Source: a virus. Taken from it: a stretch of 64,000 nt of DNA. A model generated the notes under the pieces. That model was not told the origin of the DNA, searched no databases, and saw only the letters and a list, made by a program, of their open reading frames with translations. Positions 16,353 to 63,416 of this stretch are shown here, piece after piece (the first letter of the stretch is position 1; the number at the start of each line of letters is the position of its first letter). The stretch covers positions 109,963-173,962 of the IMG/VR virus record IMGVR_UViG_3300032308_002246, one strand, 5' to 3'. Both the position numbers and the translations under genes were made by a program.

Positions 16353-19300
16353 ATGGCAGCATATACACGCAAACAATATTCGGGCGCTGCTCGTAATACG
16401 ACTACAACAACACTCTTGACGAATGTTGGAACAACAGTTGACATTACAGCGACCACTGGATGGCCATCTATTGCTGGCATCCCTTTTTATGTTGTAATCA
16501 GCCCATCTTCAATCTACGAAGAAAAGTGTCTTGCAACCATATCTGGCTCAACCCTCACTCTTGATAGAGCAAAAGATGACACTACTGCGTCAGAGCACCC
16601 AATCGGCTCAGTTATTTACCCAGTATTTACCGCAAACGACGCAGATGAAGCAAACGAACTTGTCTCAAAACTTACTACTACAGGCGACCTTCTCACCACG
16701 GACGGAACCAATCTGCTCCGTTTGGGAGTTGGCGAAGATGGCTACTTTCTAAAAGCAAGTAGTTCTGCATCAGCTGGTATCGAGTGGGCCTCAATCCCGA
16801 CAATCAACAACCTCAATGACATTGGCGATGTAACAATCAATGATGTTGAAGAATCAGATTTTCTTGTTTACAAAGCCTCGGCTTCTGCATGGATTAACGA
16901 AACAATCCACTTCATCACCGTCTCCGACACAGAGCCAACTGATGAAATAAGACAAGGCGACCTGTGGTACAACTCAAGTGAACTTGAGCTTTATACCTAT
17001 TACTCAAACAATTGGGTGCAAGTAACCCTCACCCCAGAATTTCTGAAAGTTGAAGAACTTGACAACGTTTACATTGACAACGCAAATGCTGGCGATGTTC
17101 TAACTTTTGACGGCCTTGACTGGTACAACGACAATGTAGTCAGTCTTTTGGGGCCAGATATATCTGCGGAAACCGTAACGGCTTCAGTATTCACTGGAAA
17201 CTTAACTGGAAACTCCGACACGGCAACTGCGTTAGAAACACCACGGACAATATCCCTATCTGGTGATGTTTCTGGCTCGGTTTCTTTTGACGGCTCACAA
17301 GATGTTTCCATATCTGCAACAGTTCAAATAAACTCCATAACCCTTGGAACCGACACAACTGGCAACTATGTAAATGATGTCGTAGCTGGAACCGGAATCT
17401 CAGTTACTCACACACCTGGAGAAGGTTCATCAGCAACTGTCGCAATCAATGCAACACTAGACAACCTTTCAGATGTAACTGTTCCATCTCCAACCTCTGG
17501 AGATTTCTTGAAGTGGAACGGTACGGCTTGGGTTAATGACCCAATCAACCTTGGCACCGATACTGCTGGGAATTACATGTCTGACCTTACACAGGGCACT
17601 GGTGTAACGATTACCCACACACCTGGCGAAGGCTCAAATGCAACTATCGCAATTGGTCAAGCAGTAGCGACTTCTTCGTCAGTACAGTTTGCTGCTGTTA
17701 CTGCGCCACTAGTTGGCAATGCATCAACGGCTTCAGCATTGCAAACAGCACGGGCTATCTCGTTGACTGGCGATGTTTCTGGTTCTGTTTCATTTGATGG
17801 TTCTGCAAATGCAAGCATCACTGCAACGATTCAGCCAAACTCCGTAGCTTTGGGCACGGATACAACTGGCAACTATATGTCTGACCTCACACAAGGCACT
17901 GGTGTAACGATTACGCACACACCTGGGGAAGGTTCCAATGCAACCATTGCGATTGGACAGGCTGTTGCAACTAGTTCTTCAGTTTCGTTTGCAAGACTAG
18001 AAACTACGGGAGATGTTTTAGTCGGCGGAAATTTAACCGTCAATGGAACTACCACGACATTAAACACCGAGACGTTATTGGTTGAAGACAACATAGTTGT
18101 TTTGAACTCTGGAATTACAGGTTCACCAACACTTAACTCTGGAATTGAAGTTGAGCGTGGAACTTCGGATAACGTATCAATGCGTTGGAATGAGTCAACA
18201 GACCGCTGGGAATTCACTAACGACGGAAGTGCATACAATAACGTCCTTCTGAAGAGCGATATCAGCTTGAATGATATCTCTGACACAGTAATTACGTCTG
18301 CGGCAAACGGTCAACTACTCGAATTTGATGGAACAAACTGGGTTAATGCGGTTCGCCCATCCAGCGAGCCGATGGGGCACGAGAATAAAGCTGACAGCGT
18401 AATTTCGTTCAACGAAGGCACAAGAACATTCTCCATAGCACCAGCATCTACCTCTTTTACGGTTTGGTGTGCTGGAAAACGTTTCGTAAAGACAACAACA
18501 GAAACTGTTCAAATTCCAGATACATCTGGTTTGTATTATATCTACTACAACTCAAGCGGAGTGCTTTCATATAGAACTACATACTTCGTTTGGGATACAG
18601 ACGCACCAACTGCTTATGTTTACTGGAATGAAGTAGACAACAAGGCTTACTTCTTTGCTGATGAACGTCACGGTGTAACACTCGATTGGGCAACACACGA
18701 ATACCTGCACAGAACTCGCGGTGCAGCAATCGCTAATGGATTCGGTGCAAATAACTACATTCTTGATGGCAATGGTTCATTAGATTCTCACGCAAAACTA
18801 GATATTGCTAATGGAACATTCTTTGACGAAGACCTTCAAGTTGACATTGCACATTCCGCAACCCCAACAGCAAATACATGGGAACAAGTACTTCAAGGCA
18901 ATGCAGAGATTCCAGTTTTTTACAGACTAAATAATCACTGGGTAAAGGATTCCGCAACTGAATTCCCAATGAAGCAGGGAACCGACAGGCCAAGATATAA
19001 CCTTAATACTGCTGGAACATGGTCAACACCAGATGTAGCGAATAACCACTTTGGTGTGTCTTGGATTATTGCTACGAATAACCTGAATGAACCAGTTATT
19101 GCAATTCTTGGTCAGGGTTCTTACACTAATAACGGTTCAGCGCAAGCGGAGTTTTACGCTTCACTTGATTTAGATGGATTCCCAATCGTTGAGTTTCGCC
19201 CTCTTTACAAGATTATTTATGAGTGCAAGACTTCATACACAAATACCCCAAGCGCACGAATAACGGATGTTATTGACCTAAGAAGCGTCATTTCTTCAGA

Positions 19301-19952
19301 CCAGGGTGTAGGTACAACACCAGTTTCTGACCACGGTTCAATGACTGGTCTTGCTGATGATGACCACACTCAGTATTTAACCGATGCGCGTCATGATGCT
19401 CTTGACCACACAACGGCAATAGGTTCTGCTTCGCTTGACGACATCGGCAATGTCTCGGCTTCAGCTGCTGCTTCTGGAGACTTTTTAAAGTACGACGGAG
19501 CCAATTGGGTTAATGACCCAATCAACCTTGGCACCGACACTGTCGGCAACTATATGGTCAACGTGTCTGCAAGCACCGGACTCTCAATCTCTCACACTCA
19601 GGGTGAAGGTTCGACTGCGACAATTTCAACAACTGGTGTTCAGACGCTTGGCGCAAAGGCCGGCAACTACACGCTTGCTGCTGGTGATGCTGCAGAAACA
19701 ATCATTATTATGGACTCAAGCTCCGCCAACGACTTGACTGTCCCAAGCGCTTCAGCTGTTGCGTTCGGTACTGGCACAAGCATCACCGTTGTTCAGCGAG
19801 GTACTGGCAAGACAAGAATCCTTGCAGGAGCAGGAGTAACGCTCTTGGCAACTCCTGGTCTTTTCCTAAGGGCAAGATACTCTTCATGCACAATAGTCAA
19901 AACAGAAAATGCAAACGAGTGGTTTGTTATAGGTGACTTGGCGGCATCGTGA
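16353..19952 (+). CDS. Long tail fibre protein ending in the shared C-terminal adaptor-like domain
   Basis: Repeated fibre modules (L.DV...GD.L.WNG..WVN, LGTDT.GNY, RTISL.GDVSGS.SFDGS). C-terminus NYTL...ANDLTVP...WFVIGDLAAS. Confidence 0.85.
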   Translation: MAAYTRKQYSGAARNTTTTTLLTNVGTTVDITATTGWPSIAGIPFYVVISPSSIYEEKCLATISGSTLTLDRAKDDTTASEHPIGSVIYPVFTANDADEANELVSKLTTTGDLLTTDGTNLLRLGVGEDGYFLKASSSASAGIEWASIPTINNLNDIGDVTINDVEESDFLVYKASASAWINETIHFITVSDTEPTDEIRQGDLWYNSSELELYTYYSNNWVQVTLTPEFLKVEELDNVYIDNANAGDVLTFDGLDWYNDNVVSLLGPDISAETVTASVFTGNLTGNSDTATALETPRTISLSGDVSGSVSFDGSQDVSISATVQINSITLGTDTTGNYVNDVVAGTGISVTHTPGEGSSATVAINATLDNLSDVTVPSPTSGDFLKWNGTAWVNDPINLGTDTAGNYMSDLTQGTGVTITHTPGEGSNATIAIGQAVATSSSVQFAAVTAPLVGNASTASALQTARAISLTGDVSGSVSFDGSANASITATIQPNSVALGTDTTGNYMSDLTQGTGVTITHTPGEGSNATIAIGQAVATSSSVSFARLETTGDVLVGGNLTVNGTTTTLNTETLLVEDNIVVLNSGITGSPTLNSGIEVERGTSDNVSMRWNESTDRWEFTNDGSAYNNVLLKSDISLNDISDTVITSAANGQLLEFDGTNWVNAVRPSSEPMGHENKADSVISFNEGTRTFSIAPASTSFTVWCAGKRFVKTTTETVQIPDTSGLYYIYYNSSGVLSYRTTYFVWDTDAPTAYVYWNEVDNKAYFFADERHGVTLDWATHEYLHRTRGAAIANGFGANNYILDGNGSLDSHAKLDIANGTFFDEDLQVDIAHSATPTANTWEQVLQGNAEIPVFYRLNNHWVKDSATEFPMKQGTDRPRYNLNTAGTWSTPDVANNHFGVSWIIATNNLNEPVIAILGQGSYTNNGSAQAEFYASLDLDGFPIVEFRPLYKIIYECKTSYTNTPSARITDVIDLRSVISSDQGVGTTPVSDHGSMTGLADDDHTQYLTDARHDALDHTTAIGSASLDDIGNVSASAAASGDFLKYDGANWVNDPINLGTDTVGNYMVNVSASTGLSISHTQGEGSTATISTTGVQTLGAKAGNYTLAAGDAAETIIIMDSSSANDLTVPSASAVAFGTGTSITVVQRGTGKTRILAGAGVTLLATPGLFLRARYSSCTIVKTENANEWFVIGDLAAS

Positions 19953-20911
19953 TTCCGGGCAATCAAGCCAGTGGTGGAAAGTTTATTGACCCACCAGATT
20001 CAATATCTGTAGTTCCAAACGCTCTAGGCGGTGCCAGCGACATAGTTATCAATCACACTGGTTATAAAGGGAAATCTGGGTCAGTTAAATTCAGGGTCAC
20101 TTCAAACACTGGGGTCAGTTCTGTTTCTGAAGCCACAAGTGGAACGTCTAGGTCCATGTCTCTGACTGGATTAAACAATGGCGTTAGCTACACGTTTTCA
20201 GCAGTCACAATTGAGTCTCAGTCTTCTGTCGAATCTTTATCTGCTGTAACTTCATCTTCATCACTTGTTGCAGGAGTTCCAACTGCCCCAGCTCAACCAA
20301 CTGTTTCTGCTGGTAATGGTCAAGTAACTGTATCGTGGAGCGAACCAGCAAATAACGGTGCAGCTATTACTAGTTATATTGTTTACTGGTCAACATCATC
20401 TGCTGCTATTCAAAGTTGGTCAAACTCGGTAAACACTGGTTCGACATCCACGTCTTATACCGTTACTGGATTAAGCAATGGAACCGCATACTATTTTACA
20501 GTTATTGCAGTCAACGCTACTGGTCAGAGTGCAAGGTCAGCTGTTTCAAGTGGAGCAACACCAGTGGTCCCAGGGCCACCACCTCCTCCGCCATGCTCTT
20601 GTGACGGTGTAGCCAGAAGACAGTACGGTTCATTTGCTCATCTCGACCCAGCCGGTTTTGGTTGGACATGTGACGGAACAACGAGCTACGAGTACTACAC
20701 ATATGGAACATGTGTTGGATGCCCTGGTGAAGGTGGTTACAACGGAGCATTAAGAAACGGTGTTTGTGGTTATGTCGCGCCTGCTCCTCCGCCTCCTTCT
20801 CCTCCGCCCCCTTCTCCTCCACCTCCATCGCCGCCACCCGCTCCTCCTCCTTGCTCAATATGCTGCTCTGGATGCTTTATAGACCCAAAGCTTGGACCAA
20901 TTTGTTGTTAG
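19949..20911 (+). CDS. FN3-domain 'tip' protein with Cys-rich and Ser-Pro4 tail (cassette 1 putative substrate)
   Basis: GTGA overlap with the fibre stop. Two FN3 repeats (GL.NG..Y.F), then PPPPPP, a 6-Cys block, SPPPP repeats and CSICCSGC...ICC. Confidence 0.75.
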   Translation: MIPGNQASGGKFIDPPDSISVVPNALGGASDIVINHTGYKGKSGSVKFRVTSNTGVSSVSEATSGTSRSMSLTGLNNGVSYTFSAVTIESQSSVESLSAVTSSSSLVAGVPTAPAQPTVSAGNGQVTVSWSEPANNGAAITSYIVYWSTSSAAIQSWSNSVNTGSTSTSYTVTGLSNGTAYYFTVIAVNATGQSARSAVSSGATPVVPGPPPPPPCSCDGVARRQYGSFAHLDPAGFGWTCDGTTSYEYYTYGTCVGCPGEGGYNGALRNGVCGYVAPAPPPPSPPPPSPPPPSPPPAPPPCSICCSGCFIDPKLGPICC

Positions 20912-20947: not shown

Positions 20948-21478
20948 ATGAGCAACGCTGAAGAAATTTGGATACCGCGAGAACCAACAGAATCAGAATA
21001 TACATTTCAAGGCTGGTTTAATTGGGAAAACAAATTTGGTGAATTTGGTACTCCTGGATACTGGGATTTTGTAGAACAAACAAAAATTCCGTCTGTTTTT
21101 GGGGACGATAATCCTAGAGATGTTTATTTCACGCTCTATAGACAAGACGGAGACGGCCTGCTTCTAGCAGTAATTCTTAGATACCGTGATGAATCAGGGG
21201 AGCTTCATCCACTTTTAATGCTGGTTCATCCAGACCATCGGGGGAAGGGAATTGCAACTCAAGTGCTTCTTCGCATGGAAGAAAAATTTATCAACGAAGA
21301 AGCCCATGTATATGGGTACACGGTAGAGGACTTTCGAGCACTACCAAGAGCAGAACGAGCCGCTTTGGTTATTCCTCCAAAATGGGACGTACCAACCAAT
21401 GAAGCTGGAGCGGGTTTTGCAACCCATGCAAGCAAGATGTTTTATACGGTTGAAAAAGATTTCACAGTAGAGCCGTAA
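20948..21478 (+). CDS. GNAT family N-acetyltransferase
   Basis: Acetyl-CoA motif A 'VHPDHRGKGIATQVL' and downstream 'N.AG..F'. Confidence 0.8.
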   Translation: MSNAEEIWIPREPTESEYTFQGWFNWENKFGEFGTPGYWDFVEQTKIPSVFGDDNPRDVYFTLYRQDGDGLLLAVILRYRDESGELHPLLMLVHPDHRGKGIATQVLLRMEEKFINEEAHVYGYTVEDFRALPRAERAALVIPPKWDVPTNEAGAGFATHASKMFYTVEKDFTVEP

Positions 21479-21479
21479 G

Positions 21480-21707
21480 ATGTCTGCCTATCAGGAGTGG
21501 AAGAAAAAACTTGGAGATACACGCCCGTGGGATGTTGTTAACCCAAACATAGAAAAAACCACAGATGAAGAGGCAGAAAGAAGATTTTCGATTTGCCGAG
21601 AATGTCCAAGCCTGCTTGCGGTCACCAGCCAGTGCAGAGAATGCGGATGCTTCATGAAGTTAAAGGTGAAGATACAAGAAGCAACGTGCCCCTTGCAAAA
21701 GTGGTAG
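21480..21707 (+). CDS. Small six-Cys protein (DUF6171-like), copy 1
   Basis: R..IC..CP.L.....C.ECGCFM..K......CP..KW. Confidence 0.7.
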   Translation: MSAYQEWKKKLGDTRPWDVVNPNIEKTTDEEAERRFSICRECPSLLAVTSQCRECGCFMKLKVKIQEATCPLQKW

Positions 21708-21734: not shown

Positions 21735-22322
21735 ATGAAGTACATCAACGTAAATGGCGTATGTGTTTACAGGAATGCAATTATCAATCCCTCTGAGATA
21801 ATAGAAGCCTCTGAGCTGTTAAGCATCTCGAAAGACAGCCGAGGCGATTGGACCAAATCGACAGTAATTGACACCGAGGGGAAGGTCTTTGTTTCTGAAG
21901 TAAGGACAAACCAGTTGATGTTCACCCCAACGCCAACTCAAAGGGGGGACGAGTCGTCGGCAGAGGTTATGCTGGCGAATAAAATTCACGAATATGTGAT
22001 TCCTTGTGTCCAAAACTTTGCGGCGAAATTTGGTCTTTCAATCAAGTTCCAATCTACAAACGGATATCAAATTCTCAAGTATTCAGTTAACGAACATTAC
22101 GTATCCCACCTTGATGATGGTGAAAAAACCAGACGGTACGCTTCTGCCGTTGCATACCTAAACGACGACTACGAAGGTGGCGAACTATATTTTCAGGATT
22201 TGAATTTCACATATCAGCCGGTAGCCGGGGATGTTGTAATTTTCCCATCTGGAGCACCATTTAGGCATGAGGCAAAACCCGTAATCAGCGGCATAAAGTA
22301 CTCAATAGCTAACTGGTGGTAA
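21735..22322 (+). CDS. 2OG-Fe(II) oxygenase, prolyl 4-hydroxylase-like
   Basis: HLD...YLNDDYEGGEL.F...H...KYS. Confidence 0.9.
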   Translation: MKYINVNGVCVYRNAIINPSEIIEASELLSISKDSRGDWTKSTVIDTEGKVFVSEVRTNQLMFTPTPTQRGDESSAEVMLANKIHEYVIPCVQNFAAKFGLSIKFQSTNGYQILKYSVNEHYVSHLDDGEKTRRYASAVAYLNDDYEGGELYFQDLNFTYQPVAGDVVIFPSGAPFRHEAKPVISGIKYSIANWW

Positions 22323-31595: not shown

Positions 31596-32174
31596 ATGAA
31601 ATCAATTTATGACATTGACTTGAAGTCATGGGATGGCGAACGAGATGTCCTCAAAGACTGTGAAGGTAAAGTCACACTAATAATCAATACAACTGGTCAT
31701 TGTGGAAATGCGCCACAGTTTGGGATTATTGAGGGTCTTTACCAAAAGTACAAAGACCTTGGATTCAATGTTGTCGCTGTTCCTACAAATGACTTTTGCG
31801 GCAATGGAGTCACTTACGGAGAATACGCAGACGGCGTAAAAGATGCAAAGCACGCTCGAGATTATGGTGTCAATGAATGGAACGCTTCGTTTGATTTTTC
31901 GGAGCTAGTTGTATCTTGGCATGAAAAGCTAGAGGAAAAGCAAAATACCCCCCATGAGCTTTACCAAAATCTTATGACCAATGAGGAAAAAAGACTAAAG
32001 CAAGACATGACTGGGAACTTTGAAAAGTTTTTAATCAACAAAAAAGGAGAAAGAGTAGCAAGACTCACCAACGGTGTACTACTTGAATATGCGTACAATG
32101 ACGGTTATTGCGAGTCTCCAGAAGTTGAGCTTGAAAAACTATCTAAAATGATTGAAGACGAGTTGGCAAAATGA
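31596..32174 (+). CDS. Glutathione peroxidase-like protein
   Basis: GKVTLIIN..GHCGN.PQF, VPTNDF, GNFEKFLI.K.G. Confidence 0.8.
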   Translation: MKSIYDIDLKSWDGERDVLKDCEGKVTLIINTTGHCGNAPQFGIIEGLYQKYKDLGFNVVAVPTNDFCGNGVTYGEYADGVKDAKHARDYGVNEWNASFDFSELVVSWHEKLEEKQNTPHELYQNLMTNEEKRLKQDMTGNFEKFLINKKGERVARLTNGVLLEYAYNDGYCESPEVELEKLSKMIEDELAK

Positions 32175-33064
32175 CGACAATTGACACATATCTAAAAGGT
32201 GACTACAAAAAAGCTTACGAAGTTATTCACCCCATTTCCCTTTATGACATCCCTATTGCTTCTGCGGATGGAAAAGTAACAGATTTATTTGCTGACAGAA
32301 AAGGCAAAGTAACGCTTATATTCAACTGTGCTGCTGGTTGCGGAAATATCCCACAGCACGGAGTTATTGAGCAGCTGAACCAGCGCTATGCAAATGAAAA
32401 AGACTTTGACATCATTGCAGTAGTTGTTGATGACTTTCAGTGCCACGGATACAAAGAATTCCAAGATGGGATTGCCTCGTACTGTCAAACAGTTGGCCTT
32501 GACATGTCGGTTGGTGAATTTGCCAAAAAGTATGCTGAGGAAAATTTTGGCACCACTTTTGAGTTCTCAGAACTCACAAATGCCAGATTTGACAAAGTTA
32601 CATATGAATCAGATTTTGCGCCAAATACGAGCATAAACCAAACACAAAATTCTCTTTGGTACTACCTAACCGAGGGCTATAAGGCAACAGTTAACAAACT
32701 TGGCATACCCTACACAGGAGAAGTTGTTCCTTGGTCAAACGGACAAGAGGAGTACCTAGGTGGAGATGCTACAAAAGCATTCCCAATAACAGGAAATTTT
32801 ACAAAATTTTTGATTGATAGAACCGGAACTAAAACAAAGCGATACTCCAACGGCTTTCTTCTTGGAGAGCGAGATGTTGATGGCGAAATTTATCCTTGGC
32901 TAAACGAAAAGCTTTTAGATGATGGCAAAAAAGACTGGAAACCGTTTACAGGCAAAAAAGAAAACGGTGAGCCATGGGTCGAACCAAGCGCCAAAGGACA
33001 AGGCGTTGAATTATCGCTTGATTTGATTAGCCGTGACATTGAAGATTACCTAGCTCAACAGTAA
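32171..33064 (+). CDS. Glutathione peroxidase-like protein (divergent, with insertions)
   Basis: GKVTLIFNCAAGCGNIPQH...GNFTKFLIDRTG. Confidence 0.7.
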   Translation: MTTIDTYLKGDYKKAYEVIHPISLYDIPIASADGKVTDLFADRKGKVTLIFNCAAGCGNIPQHGVIEQLNQRYANEKDFDIIAVVVDDFQCHGYKEFQDGIASYCQTVGLDMSVGEFAKKYAEENFGTTFEFSELTNARFDKVTYESDFAPNTSINQTQNSLWYYLTEGYKATVNKLGIPYTGEVVPWSNGQEEYLGGDATKAFPITGNFTKFLIDRTGTKTKRYSNGFLLGERDVDGEIYPWLNEKLLDDGKKDWKPFTGKKENGEPWVEPSAKGQGVELSLDLISRDIEDYLAQQ

Positions 33065-38957: not shown

Positions 38958-39852
38958 TGTTAAAAAGGTAAACCTTTTATCAATTGACATATTTAAAACA
39001 AAAATTAATGACATTGACAACCAGCGGCTGTTGCAAGAGATTTTAAAATCAACCAATGATATTGATGATTCATTTATTGAAAATAAATATCATACTTATT
39101 ATGAAGACAAAAGGTATCCGTTTGGTTCTGCTGAGTCGGAAAAACTAATAAACAAGTTGGCAGAAGCAGTTTCTGGTTCTTTAAACAAAGAAATGGTGCT
39201 TAGTAGCATTTGGACACTAACTCTTGGTTATGGACAGTCGGTATCTGCTCACTCGCATAAATCAAACACTCACCTTCGTCCAGAAGAGTACTTTTCAATT
39301 GCCTATTACCCAAGCGCCCCCAAGGGAAGCGCAGACTTGATATTTATGGTTAATGCCGGAAACACTATAGAAAAGTCTGTTGAACTAACACCGGAAACTG
39401 GTGACCTAATTATTTTCAACTCTTATTTAATGCATATGACCAATAGGCACGGCAATAAAGAAGAACCTCGAGTCGTTATAAGCGCAAATTTTTCTCCGAA
39501 ATACCCGAATTCAACACCAACTCAGGATTGGAGCGCTTACGCAAGACACCCAGAGGACAGTGAAATTATCTACGATAAACGTTACTCATTAACGATACGT
39601 ACTCCCTTTGGCAAGGAAGATGCAACACTTGGAATCAAAGGTGATATTGCGGAAATATTTAATCCAACCGGAAAATACTTTATAGAAAAATTTATTGAAA
39701 CAGAAGATTCATTCAGTTCTGAATTTTCTGTTGATGTGCCAATGGTTACCACTGTTAGTATTCAGTTGTCGTTTACTGAAAACAGGGCCATTGAGGGCTC
39801 TATTTTTATTGGTGAATTTGCTAAATACCATGTGAGTGGGGTGGTGTTGTGA
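38950..39852 (+). CDS. Putative 2OG-Fe(II) oxygenase (HxH type) with C-terminal extra domain
   Basis: W.......HSH...S.AYY......L.F...P..GDLIIF.SYL.H......R.VISAN. Confidence 0.75.
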   Translation: MSDVKKVNLLSIDIFKTKINDIDNQRLLQEILKSTNDIDDSFIENKYHTYYEDKRYPFGSAESEKLINKLAEAVSGSLNKEMVLSSIWTLTLGYGQSVSAHSHKSNTHLRPEEYFSIAYYPSAPKGSADLIFMVNAGNTIEKSVELTPETGDLIIFNSYLMHMTNRHGNKEEPRVVISANFSPKYPNSTPTQDWSAYARHPEDSEIIYDKRYSLTIRTPFGKEDATLGIKGDIAEIFNPTGKYFIEKFIETEDSFSSEFSVDVPMVTTVSIQLSFTENRAIEGSIFIGEFAKYHVSGVVL

Positions 39853-40460
39853 GCGAGTCTATTTACAACATCCCAATAAATTCAATTGACGGAGATAAAG
39901 ATATGCTATCAGGCCTCAATGGAATGGTTACATTGTTCTTCCCTTTTGCTTCAAAAGCTGGGTATGAGCCAAAATGCAGCCGTGTTTGGTCTTATGCTAG
40001 AACTTCCAGAAAGCTCTGGGAGATGCAAAAGCTGCACGAAATGTTTGAAAACTTCTCTGTTGTTGGGGTACCAACAAATCAGTTTTGGAACATGGAGCCT
40101 TTGGAAAATGAACAGATATCAAAATTTATAAAAGAAACATACCCATTCGTCAAGTTTCCAATTACTGAAAAAGTGGTTATAAACGGAGATGACGAGCATG
40201 CAATCTGTTCGCATATGAAGGGTTATACCAAGCGACTTGTTGACGACACAAAAGCTGGTAACAGCTTTGCTGCATCACAGGGTCAAAATCTTGCTGGTGG
40301 AGCTGTACACAAAATACCCGCTTATTACGAAAAGTTTGTAGTCAGCAAAGAAGGTCGACAGGTCTACAGATTTGGGTTTGCTACTAAACCCTTGGCAGAC
40401 AGGGTTGAAACCACTGACATGGATATGACTGTAATTCAGGCAGTACAATCATTACTATGA
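39849..40460 (+). CDS. Glutathione peroxidase-like protein lacking the canonical peroxidatic Cys
   Basis: ASKAGY in place of ASxCG; VPTNQF...EP; FPITEKV.ING...H; YEKFVV...G. Confidence 0.7.
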   Translation: MSESIYNIPINSIDGDKDMLSGLNGMVTLFFPFASKAGYEPKCSRVWSYARTSRKLWEMQKLHEMFENFSVVGVPTNQFWNMEPLENEQISKFIKETYPFVKFPITEKVVINGDDEHAICSHMKGYTKRLVDDTKAGNSFAASQGQNLAGGAVHKIPAYYEKFVVSKEGRQVYRFGFATKPLADRVETTDMDMTVIQAVQSLL

Positions 40461-44328: not shown

Positions 44329-44931
44329 CTACTCTCGCCAAAATTGAATCAAACTGAATCTAGCACCTGCAGTCACTTCCGTAATTCCATGGTAGTTCAA
44401 GTCAGCGTTGAATATAAGTGCTTCTCCAGCTTTGAGTTTGATGTCTATGTCAATATTGGGGTTCTCCATCGTCCCCGTCAAATAGAACTGCGTGTGGCCG
44501 CCTTCGTAATCGTCGTTTAAGCATATAGCCGACGAGTAGAGAATCCTGCCCATGCCGTAATCGCCATCTCCACCGTCCGTATGAACCTTGTGGGATTGAC
44601 CAGTAGTTTGGCTTTTAATCGTGAAGCCTGGGTTTGGGAAAAACGGAACATCCAAGTTTATTCCTGTTTTAAGCATGTACTCGCTGGTTAGTCTTCTGTA
44701 TACCGCAGAGAGTATTGAAGCAAGCTTAAAGCCCCCAACGCTCGAAGAATTGCTCATTAAGTAGGTGGGAAAAATGTTGCGCTCATCACTGGAAGGACTT
44801 TTATATTCCAGCGAGTTTACAGAACTCATAATTTTTGATAAGAGTCGACCACTTATTAGTTGTCCTAGGTAAATTCCAGAACCATTTGGGCCTATTTCTT
44901 TCAACATTTCTACATTATCCGTCTTTACCAC
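44329..44931 (-). CDS. 2OG-Fe(II) oxygenase, P4H-like
   Basis: HTD...CLNDDYEGG...YHGI...RFS. Start uncertain (GTG 44931 assumed). Confidence 0.85.
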   Translation of the reverse strand: MVKTDNVEMLKEIGPNGSGIYLGQLISGRLLSKIMSSVNSLEYKSPSSDERNIFPTYLMSNSSSVGGFKLASILSAVYRRLTSEYMLKTGINLDVPFFPNPGFTIKSQTTGQSHKVHTDGGDGDYGMGRILYSSAICLNDDYEGGHTQFYLTGTMENPNIDIDIKLKAGEALIFNADLNYHGITEVTAGARFSLIQFWRE

Positions 44932-45152
44932 TTTCCAAGCGGGCATGTAGCGGCCTGAAGTTTTACTTTCAGTTTCATAAAACAACCACACTCTTTACAT
45001 TGCTTTGTTAAAGCCAACAAGCTTGGGCATGACTCGCAAATAGAATATCTACTAGAAGAAACTTCATCTGAAACGTGCTTTGCATTTGGATTCACTGCAT
45101 CCCAAGGGCGTGTTGTACCAAGTTTTTTCTTGTACTCCTGCCATGGCGTCAT
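44925..45152 (-). CDS. Small six-Cys protein (DUF6171-like), copy 2
   Basis: 75 aa MTPWQEYKKKLGTTRPWD...CKECGCFMKLKVK...CPLGKW; close paralog of 21480. Confidence 0.75.
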   Translation of the reverse strand: MTPWQEYKKKLGTTRPWDAVNPNAKHVSDEVSSSRYSICESCPSLLALTKQCKECGCFMKLKVKLQAATCPLGKW

Positions 45153-45156
45153 TTTT

Positions 45157-45471
45157 TTATTGATTCCTAGCTTCCTCGATTGAATCATTGTACTGTTTAT
45201 AAGCAACCTGACAAACTGAACGGTAGTTCATTAAAGCTGAAATGTAAGCCATGACTGGGTCTATTGAGAGTTCTTCAAATTCATCTATTTGTCGAATAAA
45301 CTCTTCAACATTTTCTTTTAGTTTATTGATAATTTCCGTTTTCAAAGTTTCCAAAACGCTATTGTCATCTTCCAAAAAACCAAATATGCGAATAGCTTCC
45401 TGTTGGGCGAGAGGAATCATCTCGTCGTTTTCTTCAAAAAAAACACCCTGTGATGTATGTACGATTCTCAT
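45157..45471 (-). CDS. Hypothetical helical protein
   Basis: AGGAG SD; in cassette 3. Confidence 0.55.
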   Translation of the reverse strand: MRIVHTSQGVFFEENDEMIPLAQQEAIRIFGFLEDDNSVLETLKTEIINKLKENVEEFIRQIDEFEELSIDPVMAYISALMNYRSVCQVAYKQYNDSIEEARNQ

Positions 45472-45485
45472 GCTTTTCTCCTAAT

Positions 45486-45800
45486 TTATTGTTGCGATTT
45501 TGCAATTTTGTATTTGGTGTAGTTGTTGTTTACAGAATACGAATAGGCTGTCAATGCTTTAATGTACACGTCAAGATTGCTCATATCAAGATTTCCGTGT
45601 TTATGAAATTCTTGTGCAGTTTTATTGGCAGAATCAGCAAAACCGACAGCAAGCTCATTTATTAATTCGCTAACGAACCATGGAAATTCATCAAAGATAG
45701 GAAATAATTTTTTATCTTCCGAAACATATATGTATTCATCACCGTATTTTATTAATACTGCAGTTGAAGTATGTACGACCGAAGGTTTTTTAGCGTTCAT
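45486..45800 (-). CDS. Hypothetical protein
   Basis: ATG 45800 (MNAKK) overlaps the upstream gene; in cassette 3. Confidence 0.5.
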   Translation of the reverse strand: MNAKKPSVVHTSTAVLIKYGDEYIYVSEDKKLFPIFDEFPWFVSELINELAVGFADSANKTAQEFHKHGNLDMSNLDVYIKALTAYSYSVNNNYTKYKIAKSQQ

Positions 45801-45957
45801 TTTCTTTGCCCCATTTGCCAATAGGGCATTCAGCTGATTTTACATGTGTTTTTATTCTCATAAAACAACCGCACTCTTTGCATGTATATGTTCTCTTAAA
45901 GAGTCTTGGACACTGAGAACATATATCGAGTCTTTTTTTGGCGTAATCTATTTCCAT
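45790..45957 (-). CDS. Small six-Cys protein (DUF6171-like), copy 3; not in the ORF track
   Basis: Manual translation: MEIDYAKKRLDICSQCPRLFKRTYTCKECGCFMRIKTHVKSAECPIGKWGKENER (55 aa). Confidence 0.75.
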   Translation of the reverse strand: MEIDYAKKRLDICSQCPRLFKRTYTCKECGCFMRIKTHVKSAECPIGKWGKENER

Positions 45958-45969
45958 AAGCAATGATTA

Positions 45970-46917
45970 CTATAGCGGCTGATAGTCGAAATCGTCAACA
46001 GTCGAGGCCTGGGTCCCATTTGTAACCGGGTAAAGCGTTATTCCGTATGCTTTTGCTTTTGCCGCCGTTGCGAGACTTACATCGTGGGTTGTCGCTGCAT
46101 CACCGTTTAGAACTGATTGAATTCGCACGGTCTCTGAAGATGGTGTATCTGTACTCACTTGAACATAATCGAAGTATCTAGAAGAGCTTGTAGTGTCTGC
46201 TTTGCTTGTGCTATTTACAACCGTAACAGTTCCGCCACTTGATTTAATTGTTCTAATCCAATATCTGTAGTATGTAGTTGTTCCGGAAACAGTGTAAGAG
46301 TATGAACCAACACCTACCTGCGTATTATTTTCACATTGACAGGCAAGGCCATTGTTAACAAAATAACACCCACCACCGCATACATTTGCACATCCACCTC
46401 CAGTGGATTGACCATTACATGATGGGTCAGGTCCACATGAGCCGCATGGGCTGGAGCATGGCTGATAAAAAGCGCACGGTCCACTTCCCCCAGTACATGC
46501 ATTGTTTGAGCATGTGCAAGTTGGGTATCCTGAACAAACCGAATAACCACCAGGGCAACCATTGCAGGCATATTCAGTATAGCTATATGGGACTCCATAT
46601 GTGTCTCTATCAGTTACCGCGGCATACCAATTATTTGAGTTTTCAACCCAAAATGCAGCACCCCAGCCAAATTGGCCTGTTGTTCCGTATCCTATGCGCG
46701 TTCTTGCATACGTAACACCAGTTTTAATGGAGGCCAAAGGATATGAAGACGCTGCAGTAGCTGTTGATGCCCTGTTGCTTGATACACCCCATGTGCCTCG
46801 AGTATTTTGCCAAGACTTTGTGCCTGTCCCTACAAGCGTACTTCCGCTGTCTGTTCTATTGAAATTATCAATAAAAGCTTTTAATTTTGTAACAATAGAT
46901 ACAATTCCAGGAATCAT
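45970..46917 (-). CDS. Lectin-like 'tip' protein with a 16-Cys insert (cassette 3 putative substrate)
   Basis: ATGA overlap with the upstream fibre stop. Starts MIPGIV; 'DNFNRTD...W....GTW' beta-sandwich; central Cys/Gly-rich block. Confidence 0.7.
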   Translation of the reverse strand: MIPGIVSIVTKLKAFIDNFNRTDSGSTLVGTGTKSWQNTRGTWGVSSNRASTATAASSYPLASIKTGVTYARTRIGYGTTGQFGWGAAFWVENSNNWYAAVTDRDTYGVPYSYTEYACNGCPGGYSVCSGYPTCTCSNNACTGGSGPCAFYQPCSSPCGSCGPDPSCNGQSTGGGCANVCGGGCYFVNNGLACQCENNTQVGVGSYSYTVSGTTTYYRYWIRTIKSSGGTVTVVNSTSKADTTSSSRYFDYVQVSTDTPSSETVRIQSVLNGDAATTHDVSLATAAKAKAYGITLYPVTNGTQASTVDDFDYQPL

Positions 46918-48107
46918 GTTGTAAGGTTCCCTACCGCCACCCATGTATTTGTTGCTCGCTTAATCAATGTAGCACAAGCCCATTGACCCTGAAGTTTTAG
47001 ACCAGAATCATAAGCATTTATGGTTACGCCACTTCCCTGCAGTGTTACCAAATATGTGCCGGTTGTTTGAAGAACATCGACTCTGTCGCCAATAGCAAAG
47101 TTGGCGTCATTTGCCGATGTTATTGTGACAGTAACATTTGCTGATGTCGGGCCAACTTCAATAAGTTTTCCGAGGTCGGCAACAAGTATGTTGTAATTAT
47201 TCGATGTTAGAGTTACCGCTGTTCCAGCACCAGTTGACCTAAAACCAGCGCGCGCCGCTCCAGCAGCAAGGTCTGTTGTGGAAACAGAGTTTGCTAAGTT
47301 TAATTTTGAATACGAAATTGATGCTGACGCACTAATATCGGAATCAACAATAACACTGGCTGAAATCGCTGTAACACCAGTGTCTGAAATTGTTACATCT
47401 CCAGACTCCGCAACGGCAGTCGGAACGCCAGAAGAGTTGTAGACAATAATGTTTCCAGCAGTGCTTGTTGCCAATTTTGACAAAGCAATAGACGCAGATG
47501 CGCTTATGTCTTCGTTGACAATAGTTCCATTTACTATATTTGCTGATGCAATAGTTATTGCGGTTGGGAGTGCCCCTGTAGCAAGTTTTGACAAATCAAT
47601 AGACGCAGAAGCATTTATATCAGCATTGACAATTGTTCCGTCAAGAATTTTATCACTTGTAACTGAACCAGTTGCAAGTTTTGCTTCTGTTATAGCGCCG
47701 TCTTCAACTTCAGCTGTTTGAACTTCTCCTGAACCACCGGTTATGACCCAATCATCGCTTGTTCTTTTAATTAAGGTTACTCTTGTCCATTGAGATGAGA
47801 TTGTCGTTAGACCGCCCTCGGCTGCAACTGTTACGCCTGGTGCACCAGCAATACTCAATGAACCTGTAGAAACGAGAAGAACATCAACCCTGTCTCCAAT
47901 TTCAAAAGTAACAGCGGCGTTGGTCGGTATTGTCAGAGTAATTGACCCAGAGTTTGAGAACTCCAAAAGCTTTCCTCTGTCGGTAGCTACAAGTGTGTAG
48001 CTTGTTCCAGTCTGGACATTTTTTGTAAAATTAAAATCGCTTGCCTGGAGCGTATTCATCTGTGAGGCCGTTAGTGTCTGGCCAGCTGCAAACGTCTGAA
48101 TTGTCAT
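46914..48107 (-). CDS. Short fibre/adaptor with two copies of the shared domain (cassette 3)
   Basis: SYTLVATDRGK...WVITGG and YNILVADLGK...TWVAVGNLTT flank 'IVN.DI.ASASI..SKL' repeats. Confidence 0.75.
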   Translation of the reverse strand: MTIQTFAAGQTLTASQMNTLQASDFNFTKNVQTGTSYTLVATDRGKLLEFSNSGSITLTIPTNAAVTFEIGDRVDVLLVSTGSLSIAGAPGVTVAAEGGLTTISSQWTRVTLIKRTSDDWVITGGSGEVQTAEVEDGAITEAKLATGSVTSDKILDGTIVNADINASASIDLSKLATGALPTAITIASANIVNGTIVNEDISASASIALSKLATSTAGNIIVYNSSGVPTAVAESGDVTISDTGVTAISASVIVDSDISASASISYSKLNLANSVSTTDLAAGAARAGFRSTGAGTAVTLTSNNYNILVADLGKLIEVGPTSANVTVTITSANDANFAIGDRVDVLQTTGTYLVTLQGSGVTINAYDSGLKLQGQWACATLIKRATNTWVAVGNLTT

Positions 48108-63029: not shown

Positions 63030-63416
63030 ATGAGCGAAATTGAATCAGAAAATGTATCTATAGAGACTAAAGAGGAAAGAGACTCTAAGAATAAAAGTGT
63101 AAGAAGAAATTTACAAGACATAGCTAGTGGTATTGCTATACAAAGATACGACTGGATGGACCTAGCAAGATGCAAGGGACGTACAGAAGACATGTTTCCC
63201 AAAGGGCATAAGGACATTAGCTACATTCAGGGGGCTAGAGAGATGTGCTCGTACTGCACCGTTCGACCACAGTGCCTGGAGTATGCACTAGAGTTTCCAC
63301 CTGCTGACATGCACGGGGTATGGGCAGGGATGACATCAAGACAGTTAGCGGCCGAACAACGAAGGAGAGGAATCACACCGACTAAGCCAACGCTTAGCCA
63401 GATGTGGAACGACTAA
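63030..63416 (+). CDS. whiB: WhiB family transcriptional regulator
   Basis: W...ARC......FP......A..MC..C.V...CL.YAL......GVWAG. Confidence 0.9.
   Translation: MSEIESENVSIETKEERDSKNKSVRRNLQDIASGIAIQRYDWMDLARCKGRTEDMFPKGHKDISYIQGAREMCSYCTVRPQCLEYALEFPPADMHGVWAGMTSRQLAAEQRRRGITPTKPTLSQMWND

Follow-up and report, generated by a model that had tools for sequence, protein, structure and literature searches.

The protein of 315 amino acids (aa) encoded on the minus strand at positions 45970..46917 of the stretch of DNA analyzed here, which comes from an uncultured phage, is a candidate adhesin, which would form the distal tip of a tail fiber and in which a lectin-like body would display a disulfide-locked knob for host recognition. 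Judged from sequence and model comparisons, we consider this reading moderately probable. The stretch, referred to as the window, comprises 64,000 nucleotides (positions 109,963 to 173,962) and forms the last 64 kb of the complete 173,962-bp IMG/VR genome IMGVR_UViG_3300032308_002246, which has terminal repeats. The product of the gene, hereafter the tip protein, is composed of a ConA-like scaffold and a Cys/Gly-rich insert, and its gene is followed directly by a gene encoding a small protein of the DUF6171 family.

The insert comprises 79 residues, A126-C204 (46333..46569, minus strand), and is distinguished by its composition, its low model confidence, and its Cys parity. It contains 17 Gly, 16 Cys, 9 Ser, 7 Asn, and 7 Pro, with a single charged residue and no His. 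The Cys residues are located at positions 127, 130, 137, 143, 145, 150, 157, 163, 167, 170, 176, 185, 189, 193, 202, and 204, and the tip protein has no Cys outside the insert, which is flanked by the motif YSYT on both sides (120-123 and 215-218). At the Cys frequency of the genome (0.86% in open reading frames [ORFs] of at least 150 aa), about 0.7 Cys would be expected per 79 residues, and the tip gene is the sole real long ORF with at least 4% Cys in the 174-kb genome. An earlier reading of the DNA letters, the original prediction, had noted at 46333-46570 a Gly-rich insert with 16 Cys, flanked by YSYT strands in a domain that has no other Cys, next to a six-Cys DUF6171-like gene. Both statements were confirmed, the neighboring protein scoring 28.6 bits against PF19668.

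The tip protein was modeled by AlphaFold2 (AF2) with 43 homologues. The predicted local distance difference test score (pLDDT) was above 90 at residues ~20-127 and 214-324 and only 38-46 in the insert. The N-terminal half of the scaffold, residues 10-125 (46570..46917, minus strand; pLDDT 80-98 and 45-95% identity among homologues), ends with the ascending strand of a stalk (105-127), and the residues D26, F28, G50, W52, G93, G95, W99, W106, and D112 of this half are invariant in the homologue alignment. A short linker and the C-terminal half, residues 205-324 (45973..46332, minus strand; pLDDT 93-97), follow the insert, the latter half starting from the descending stalk strand (214-236). In the model, these two unusually long strands bracket the insert and pair as a hairpin, as had been anticipated for the flanks. 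Structural alignments of the model cover residues ~20-324. In the VIA structural search, the scaffold aligned with CBM66 (4b1m; Z 15.6, 153 of 165 residues, root mean square deviation 2.8), the C-terminal receptor-binding domain of mycobacteriophage TM4 gp23 (9n6a; Z 15.3), the Douge baseplate protein (8zdo; Z 14.6), and the CBM2 of the "evolved Dit" of Lactobacillus phage J-1 (5ly8; Z 12.0). Many lectins, carbohydrate-binding modules (CBMs), and GH43 C-terminal domains gave Z scores of 10-15, and legume lectins gave ~11. The modeled scaffold can be assigned with confidence to the ConA-like lectin/CBM jelly rolls, in agreement with the lectin-like beta-sandwich originally proposed. Foldseek searches of the PDB with the whole model returned only weak E-values because the insert is disordered in the model, and the fold was settled by VIA-align.

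An in-frame ATG further upstream, at 46944, would extend the tip gene to an ORF of 324 aa (45970..46944, minus strand). Because all homologues begin where M10 (MIPGIV) stands in this protein, translation probably starts at 46917, which gives the 315-aa product. Its ATG (46917-46915) and the TGA stop of the upstream gene (46914..48107, minus strand) share the sequence ATGA, and because of this overlap, the tip protein is probably translationally coupled to the upstream gene. The latter encodes a fiber or "cap" protein of 397 aa with matches to phrog_8780 (minor tail protein, E 1e-26) and to tail-fiber PHROGs; in most related loci, its C-terminal domain is likewise encoded ahead of the tip gene. 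Some relatives of the tip protein (L122 and P0120) are fused to FN3 repeats. The tail-fiber matches of the upstream gene, the FN3-fused relatives, and the ATGA coupling together suggest that the tip protein would be located at the tail tip. Among the predicted viral structures of BFVD, the best matches were proteins from uncultured Caudovirales and minor tail proteins of actinophages.

The tip protein has no match in Pfam, PHROG, or NCBIfam, and neither the protein (tblastn) nor 5 kb of the DNA (megablast) matched any of 50,697 cultured-phage records. Its metagenomic relatives numbered 69 in one search, and an exhaustive profile search returned 607 clusters at 50% identity, of which 320 matched with E ≤ 1e-10. 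Across the homologues, the two halves of the scaffold align end to end, and the middle region varies from 52 to 142 aa. The identity of the insert is 76% where the scaffolds are 90-100% identical, and it falls to ~20-27%, which is the chance level, where scaffold identity is below ~55%. The proposal that the scaffold is conserved and the insert hypervariable was thus upheld by the homologue alignment. Compared with L148, a 76%-identical relative of known DNA sequence, all 16 Cys are retained, and the nonsynonymous divergence (dN) is 0.43 at the non-Cys codons of the insert vs 0.15 in the scaffold. The ratio of dN to the synonymous divergence (dS) at the non-Cys insert codons is 0.39 in the same comparison, with dS saturated.

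The sequences of distant members indicate that the insert is genuinely grafted into the scaffold, because P0120 has a scaffold without an insert, in which the two strands are directly joined, and because other repeats occupy the same hairpin site in P0118 (PPSYYAG repeats without Cys) and in P0162 (NPPPGG repeats with two Cys pairs closing the base). The hairpin site is, on these sequences, a general hot-spot for insertion. Tyr/Ala/Gly-rich sequence is also found at this site among distant members (in the set of P0118, P0162, P0098, and P0120). In some knobs (L113:2140-3633, L133:2908-3567, and P0035-type homologues), a 12-residue motif, C-P-x-G-G-x-L-S-G-T-x-C, is repeated many times; it probably forms a disulfide-closed hairpin. 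One relative, of 497 aa, has up to 26 Cys. A blastn search of the whole genome with the insert DNA found only the insert itself. As the genome holds no template repeat of the insert, the insert was ruled out as the target of a diversity-generating retroelement (DGR).

The number of Cys residues in the insert provides the main evidence for its chemistry. In 75 unique full-length near homologues, the count ranged from 6 to 20 with a mode of 10, and it was even in 74. Parsimony on a tree made from the scaffold columns alone required at least 26 changes in Cys number; were parity free to vary, it would be very unlikely to stay even through these changes with a single exception. Among 132 full-length representatives with less than 50% mutual identity, 118 had an even total (totals of 0-33, apart from an outlier of 1,091 aa with 133 Cys), and the Cys clustered within the middle part of the chain (30-70%). 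In a distant clade with 10-42 Cys, every complete ORF was even. Losses also come in pairs: P0006 lacks the equivalents of both C167 and C202, and close relatives lose or shift Cys pairwise. The content of His is 0.4% of the insert residues in near homologues, and acidic residues are nearly absent. Even/odd counting of Cys is an established indicator of disulfide use (PMC3177088). Because parity is kept even, His is nearly absent, and the counts are often not multiples of four, we consider it likely that the knob is a disulfide-paired module, as predicted from these sequences. The original proposal of a disulfide knob and not a Zn or Fe-S domain therefore stands on the parity in 74 of 75 homologues; furthermore, the insert was less conserved than the scaffold and matched no known Zn or Fe-S domain.

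We suggest that the tip protein would work as follows. The two long central strands of the ConA-like jelly-roll body would extend as a beta-hairpin, at the end of which the Cys/Gly-rich module of ~80 residues is inserted. All Cys of the knob would be paired, giving eight disulfides in this phage and a compact, cross-linked knob. Since the non-Cys positions, the length, and the Cys framework of the knob change rapidly among relatives and the scaffold stays constant, the knob would most likely be the host-contacting surface that determines specificity, in line with the variable receptor-binding element of the original prediction, and the lectin body would be a stable platform for its display. 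The tip protein would be made together with the upstream fiber protein and the downstream DUF6171 protein. Several points weigh against this proposal. The knob has no reliable model, as its AF2 confidence is ~40, and the lectin body could be the binding site instead. Because dS is saturated, diversifying selection and relaxed constraint are not separable, and relaxed constraint also gives quick change. Odd Cys totals occur in 14 of the 132 distant representatives, several of these cases having one additional scaffold Cys or a doubtful start. Moreover, virions assemble in the reducing cytoplasm, so when and how the disulfides would form is a difficulty.

The same difficulty is an argument for a metal-binding domain with Zn(Cys)4 sites, Fe-S clusters, or a metallothionein-like structure, since a reducing cytoplasm favors metal-thiolate over disulfide. 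The 16 Cys would suit four Cys4 sites, and the insert contains two CxxC and two CxC motifs. However, neither a family match in Pfam, PHROG, or NCBIfam nor a conserved set of ligands of the Zn-finger, Fe-S, or metallothionein type was found for the insert, and the best PDB sequence matches were insignificant (E 0.7 for an EGF-like pair, E 2 for a Kunitz-like protein). Conservation of the Cys framework is lacking, the CxxCxxC spacing of ferredoxins is absent, and the scarcity of His and acidic residues also argues against metal ligation. The counts range from 6 to 42, the commonest being 10 in near homologues and 22 and 24 in the distant clade, and Cys4 sites do not account for values like 10, 14, and 22. 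Metal clusters do not demand that parity be conserved either, and we regard a metal-binding insert as very improbable. It has also to be considered that the insert might be a fast-drifting low-complexity spacer or a stabilizing staple with no part in recognition, binding being left to the lectin body or to other fibers. The unrelated low-complexity repeats at the same site in P0118 and P0162, the dN/dS below 1, and the several other large fiber proteins encoded by the phage are consistent with this explanation. In contrast, the strict maintenance of parity through at least 26 changes implies selection on a folded, cross-linked module, and a position at the tip of a hairpin together with variability above that of the scaffold is typical of specificity loops. 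A mere spacer or staple is therefore improbable in our view.

The DUF6171 gene (45790..45963, minus strand) begins 7-13 nucleotides past the stop of the tip gene, and its product has 57 aa if read from a TTG or 55 aa if read from the ATG at 45957. This short-type protein is placed in PF19668 by a score above the cut-off of 27 bits and also matches phrog_13558 (E 1e-16). Its motif contains six invariant Cys, C-x2-C-x9-C-x2-C-x-C-x12-C-P-x3-W, and in 74 DUF6171 sequences these Cys are invariant together with R, T, E, G, K, P, and W; the conserved residues include a CxxC and a CGC. DUF6171 is much better conserved than the tip protein (47-69% vs 28-35% identity). The AF2 model (56 aa, pLDDT 88) consists of an N-terminal helix and short hairpins, and no structural relative was found above Z 3. 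The sequence matches to the Zn-ribbon proteins RPB12 and L33 were insignificant (E ~0.2). DUF6171 was rejected as a thioredoxin-fold oxidoreductase, as the model shows a helix with Zn-ribbon-like hairpins. It was also rejected as an assembly protein of the Tfa/gp38 type, since Pfam gives DUF6171 alone and the 3' position is a functional analogy only. No paper on DUF6171 was found in the literature search. In Synechococcus phage S-CBS2, gp034 (L143:3746-4165), which lies directly past a tail fiber gene and is labeled "RNA polymerase-like protein", is a DUF6171 protein, and the label probably stems from the Zn-ribbon resemblance to RPB12. Proteins of ~210 aa just upstream of DUF6171 in three loci (L069:3381-4001, L063:1054-1683, and L082:3325-4011) end in a degenerate DUF6171-like motif, C-x2-C...C...C-P-x-x-K-W, from which the CGC is absent; their sequences suggest tandem duplication and divergence of a DUF6171 module.

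The association of DUF6171 with Cys-rich tips extends beyond this genome. DUF6171 is encoded directly 3' of the tip homologue, on the same strand and at a distance of -3 to +150 nucleotides, in 58 of 60 loci (54/56 from IMG/VR and 4/4 from metagenomes), and the two exceptions stop at the edge of the contig. Searching from DUF6171 gave at least 595 IMG/VR matches, in which the upstream gene usually encodes a scaffold homologue with 4-26 Cys. The other upstream genes encode unrelated Cys-rich tips, such as FN3/Pro-rich/Cys-knob proteins and those of L072/L086, L133, and L059. At least six Cys are present in 77% of the genes upstream of DUF6171 vs 15% of other ORFs, the loci not being phylogenetically independent. 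In the distant Cys-rich clade, DUF6171 is not adjacent to the tip gene and lies ~3 kb downstream on the same strand (5/5 contigs checked). DUF6171 is absent from the 27.8-kb contig that carries the insert-less P0120, and no DUF6171 gene follows a Cys-free PPFF tip in the window; the control without a Cys knob rests on one locus (L152), since no locus of the Cys-free P0118 was found in IMG/VR. In cultured phages (Stenotrophomonas phage Moby and cyanophage Syn9), DUF6171 is surrounded by small early genes or by tRNAs, and none of its neighbors is Cys-rich. In two genomes (G003 and G004), DUF6171 makes up the C-terminal domain of a larger protein of 480 aa, of which the N-terminal part belongs to PF11397, the Skp1-hydroxyproline N-acetylglucosamine-transferase family (E 3.5e-27). 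One such fusion protein (L226:3522-4964, corresponding to G003:C1:49521-50963) is encoded beside a methyltransferase and a GT2/TPR protein, and the gene of a 22-Cys tip lies ~3 kb upstream of it.

The genome scan found three copies of DUF6171 with scores of 36.6, 26.8, and 26.2 bits. The second paralogue in the window (44925..45206, minus strand; PF19668, 27.0 bits) is of the long type, with a probable start at the ATG at 45152 that gives 75 aa, and lies just upstream of genes for P4H-like 2-oxoglutarate (2OG) oxygenases. The third (21480..21707, plus strand; 75 aa) lies directly before a 2OG oxygenase gene (21735..22322) and two genes past that of a second Cys-knob tip protein (19949..20911, plus strand), whose translation contains FN3 domains, Pro-rich (poly-Pro) linkers, and 12 Cys in its C-terminal region. 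The gene order from this second tip onward is a GNAT-sized gene, the DUF6171 paralogue, and the 2OG oxygenase. Similar FN3/Pro-rich/Cys-knob proteins precede DUF6171 in L102, L106, and L118. Between the two DUF6171 genes near the first tip are two genes (45157..45471 and 45486..45821, minus strand) for Cys-poor proteins of 104 and 111 aa, which match no family and, with VHTS and YI.AL..Y motifs in common, look like paralogues of one another.

Based on these gene arrangements, DUF6171 probably acts on or with the knob during its maturation, and it may alternatively be a subunit of the tip or something unrelated. A dedicated maturation factor, that is, a small redox-active or metal-dependent chaperone which would hold the reduced knob or catalyze or template its disulfides in the cytoplasm, is a tentative possibility and corresponds to the folding help of the original prediction. 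It is in line with the adjacency in the 58 loci, the downstream copies in the distant clade, the unrelated Cys-rich tips that also precede DUF6171, the enrichment of Cys-rich genes upstream of it, its absence from the P0120 contig and after the PPFF tip, and its invariant CxxC and CGC. However, DUF6171 in Moby and Syn9 has no Cys-rich neighbor, its fold is not that of thioredoxin and its Zn-ribbon matches are weak, the compared loci share ancestry so that the synteny could be inherited, and there is a single insert-less control locus. A role as a folding helper is thus plausible but unproven, because DUF6171 also occurs away from Cys-rich genes and fused to a glycosyltransferase. In view of that fusion, DUF6171 may instead be a docking or adaptor module which would bring P4H-like 2OG oxygenases and glycosyltransferases to the tips, in which case the knob would be hydroxylated and/or glycosylated with no redox role for DUF6171. 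Both long paralogues in the window lie directly upstream of P4H-like oxygenases, 2OG oxygenases also stand beside DUF6171 in L029, L089, and L114, and the insert offers its Pro and Asn residues, seven of each. However, an oxygenase is lacking within 6 kb in most of the related loci (L002-L037), DUF6171 is absent from the 12-kb island of oxygenases that follows the PPFF tip, and the phage's own genome has no PF11397 gene. We regard an adaptor role as rather doubtful. A wider proposal would make DUF6171 a minimal phage maturation factor, whose CxxC and CGC let tailed phages build multi-disulfide hypervariable knobs in the reducing cytoplasm, much as poxviruses and other large DNA viruses have disulfide pathways of their own in the cytoplasm, and which in some lineages is coupled to hydroxylation and glycosylation of the tip. 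We consider this proposal unlikely.

The genome has a GC content of 43.8% and carries four WhiB-family genes (E 1e-13 to 1e-16), one in the window (63030..63416, plus strand) and three outside it (genome positions 17314-17499, 21309-21497, and 39498-39689). Because of these four genes, the host is probably an actinobacterium. The closest counterparts of the baseplate J protein are found in Gordonia and Arthrobacter phages, at only 23% identity. No psbA was found in the genome, and a search for the T4-type capsid protein Gp23 gave no match, with its positive control likewise silent; on these two negatives, an identity as a T4-like phage or cyanophage was rejected. A search of the genome for an Erv1/ALR sulfhydryl oxidase also gave no match, as did its positive control. 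A thioredoxin is encoded in the genome, and three GPx-like thioredoxin-fold proteins are encoded in the oxygenase island (31596..32171, 32171..33061, and 39849..40457, plus strand), which match NCBIfam PRK10606 with E-values of 5e-10 to 5e-19, all scoring far under the family cut-off. Homologues of the third are present in related loci. A link of the thioredoxin and the GPx-like proteins to oxidation of the knob would be speculation.

It is already well known that the tail tips of phages bear lectin and CBM jelly rolls. The tip protein has the same scaffold fold as TM4 gp23, the Douge baseplate protein, the CBM2 of J-1 Dit, and CBM66 (Z 12-15.6 over 153-182 residues) and a tail-tip genomic context like theirs, but it shares only 8-11% identity with these modules (8-13% with the structural templates), has no Pfam match, and its 80-residue insert is left essentially unaligned. 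The closest functional analogy, offered as an analogy only, is the ultralong third heavy-chain complementarity-determining region (CDR H3) of bovine antibodies, in which a beta-ribbon stalk rising from a beta-sandwich bears a small disulfide knob, and the sequence and Cys pattern of the knob are diversified while the Cys stay paired (PMC5994613, PMC10523490). Unlike the antibody, the phage scaffold is ConA-like and not an immunoglobulin fold, the knob is larger, with eight predicted disulfides vs two to four, its diversity is found across phage lineages instead of arising by somatic mutation, and it is made in the bacterial cytoplasm instead of the endoplasmic reticulum. Disulfides have been described in virions of tailed phages. 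A 2026 preprint on Jabs, an actinophage of Mycobacterium abscessus, reports ~1,700 disulfides in the virion and CBM-bearing adhesion devices (PMC13419713), which shows that disulfide-rich tailed-phage virions do exist despite cytoplasmic assembly, and gp39, the tail tube protein of a siphovirus, is another example (PMC13576161). In those cases, however, mostly one or a few conserved cross-links stabilize assemblies, whereas here a whole hypervariable mini-domain is predicted.

The position of DUF6171 is similar to that of the partner genes in lambda stf-tfa, Mu S-U, and T4 gp37-gp38, where a small conserved gene lies directly 3' of the fiber-tip gene and is co-transcribed with it. Unlike Tfa and gp38, DUF6171 has no sequence match to these proteins, possesses six invariant Cys and a Zn-ribbon-like core, and also occurs away from fiber genes. 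The tip protein further resembles Mtd of the Bordetella phage, a DGR product with a C-type lectin fold, in that a stable lectin-type scaffold shows a hypervariable surface. It differs from DGR proteins such as Mtd in having no template repeat and in variation that includes indels and changes of the Cys framework. In the literature searched, we found no description of a hypervariable knob with multiple predicted disulfides at a fixed hairpin of a lectin scaffold, or of its conserved pairing with DUF6171.

These results bear on host recognition by uncultured freshwater phages, which is largely unexplored. They define a large family without a name, of 607 clusters, in which a constant lectin scaffold carries an exchangeable module, apparently a disulfide-knotted knob in most members. 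If the proposed function is true, it would provide a sequence-level marker of the specificity determinant in these phages and a natural stalk-and-knob display scaffold produced in bacteria. It would also give a testable function to DUF6171, which is present in cyanophages, in phages of Stenotrophomonas and Rhizobium, and in many uncultured phages, and would raise the question of how viruses that assemble in a reducing cytoplasm make multi-disulfide domains.

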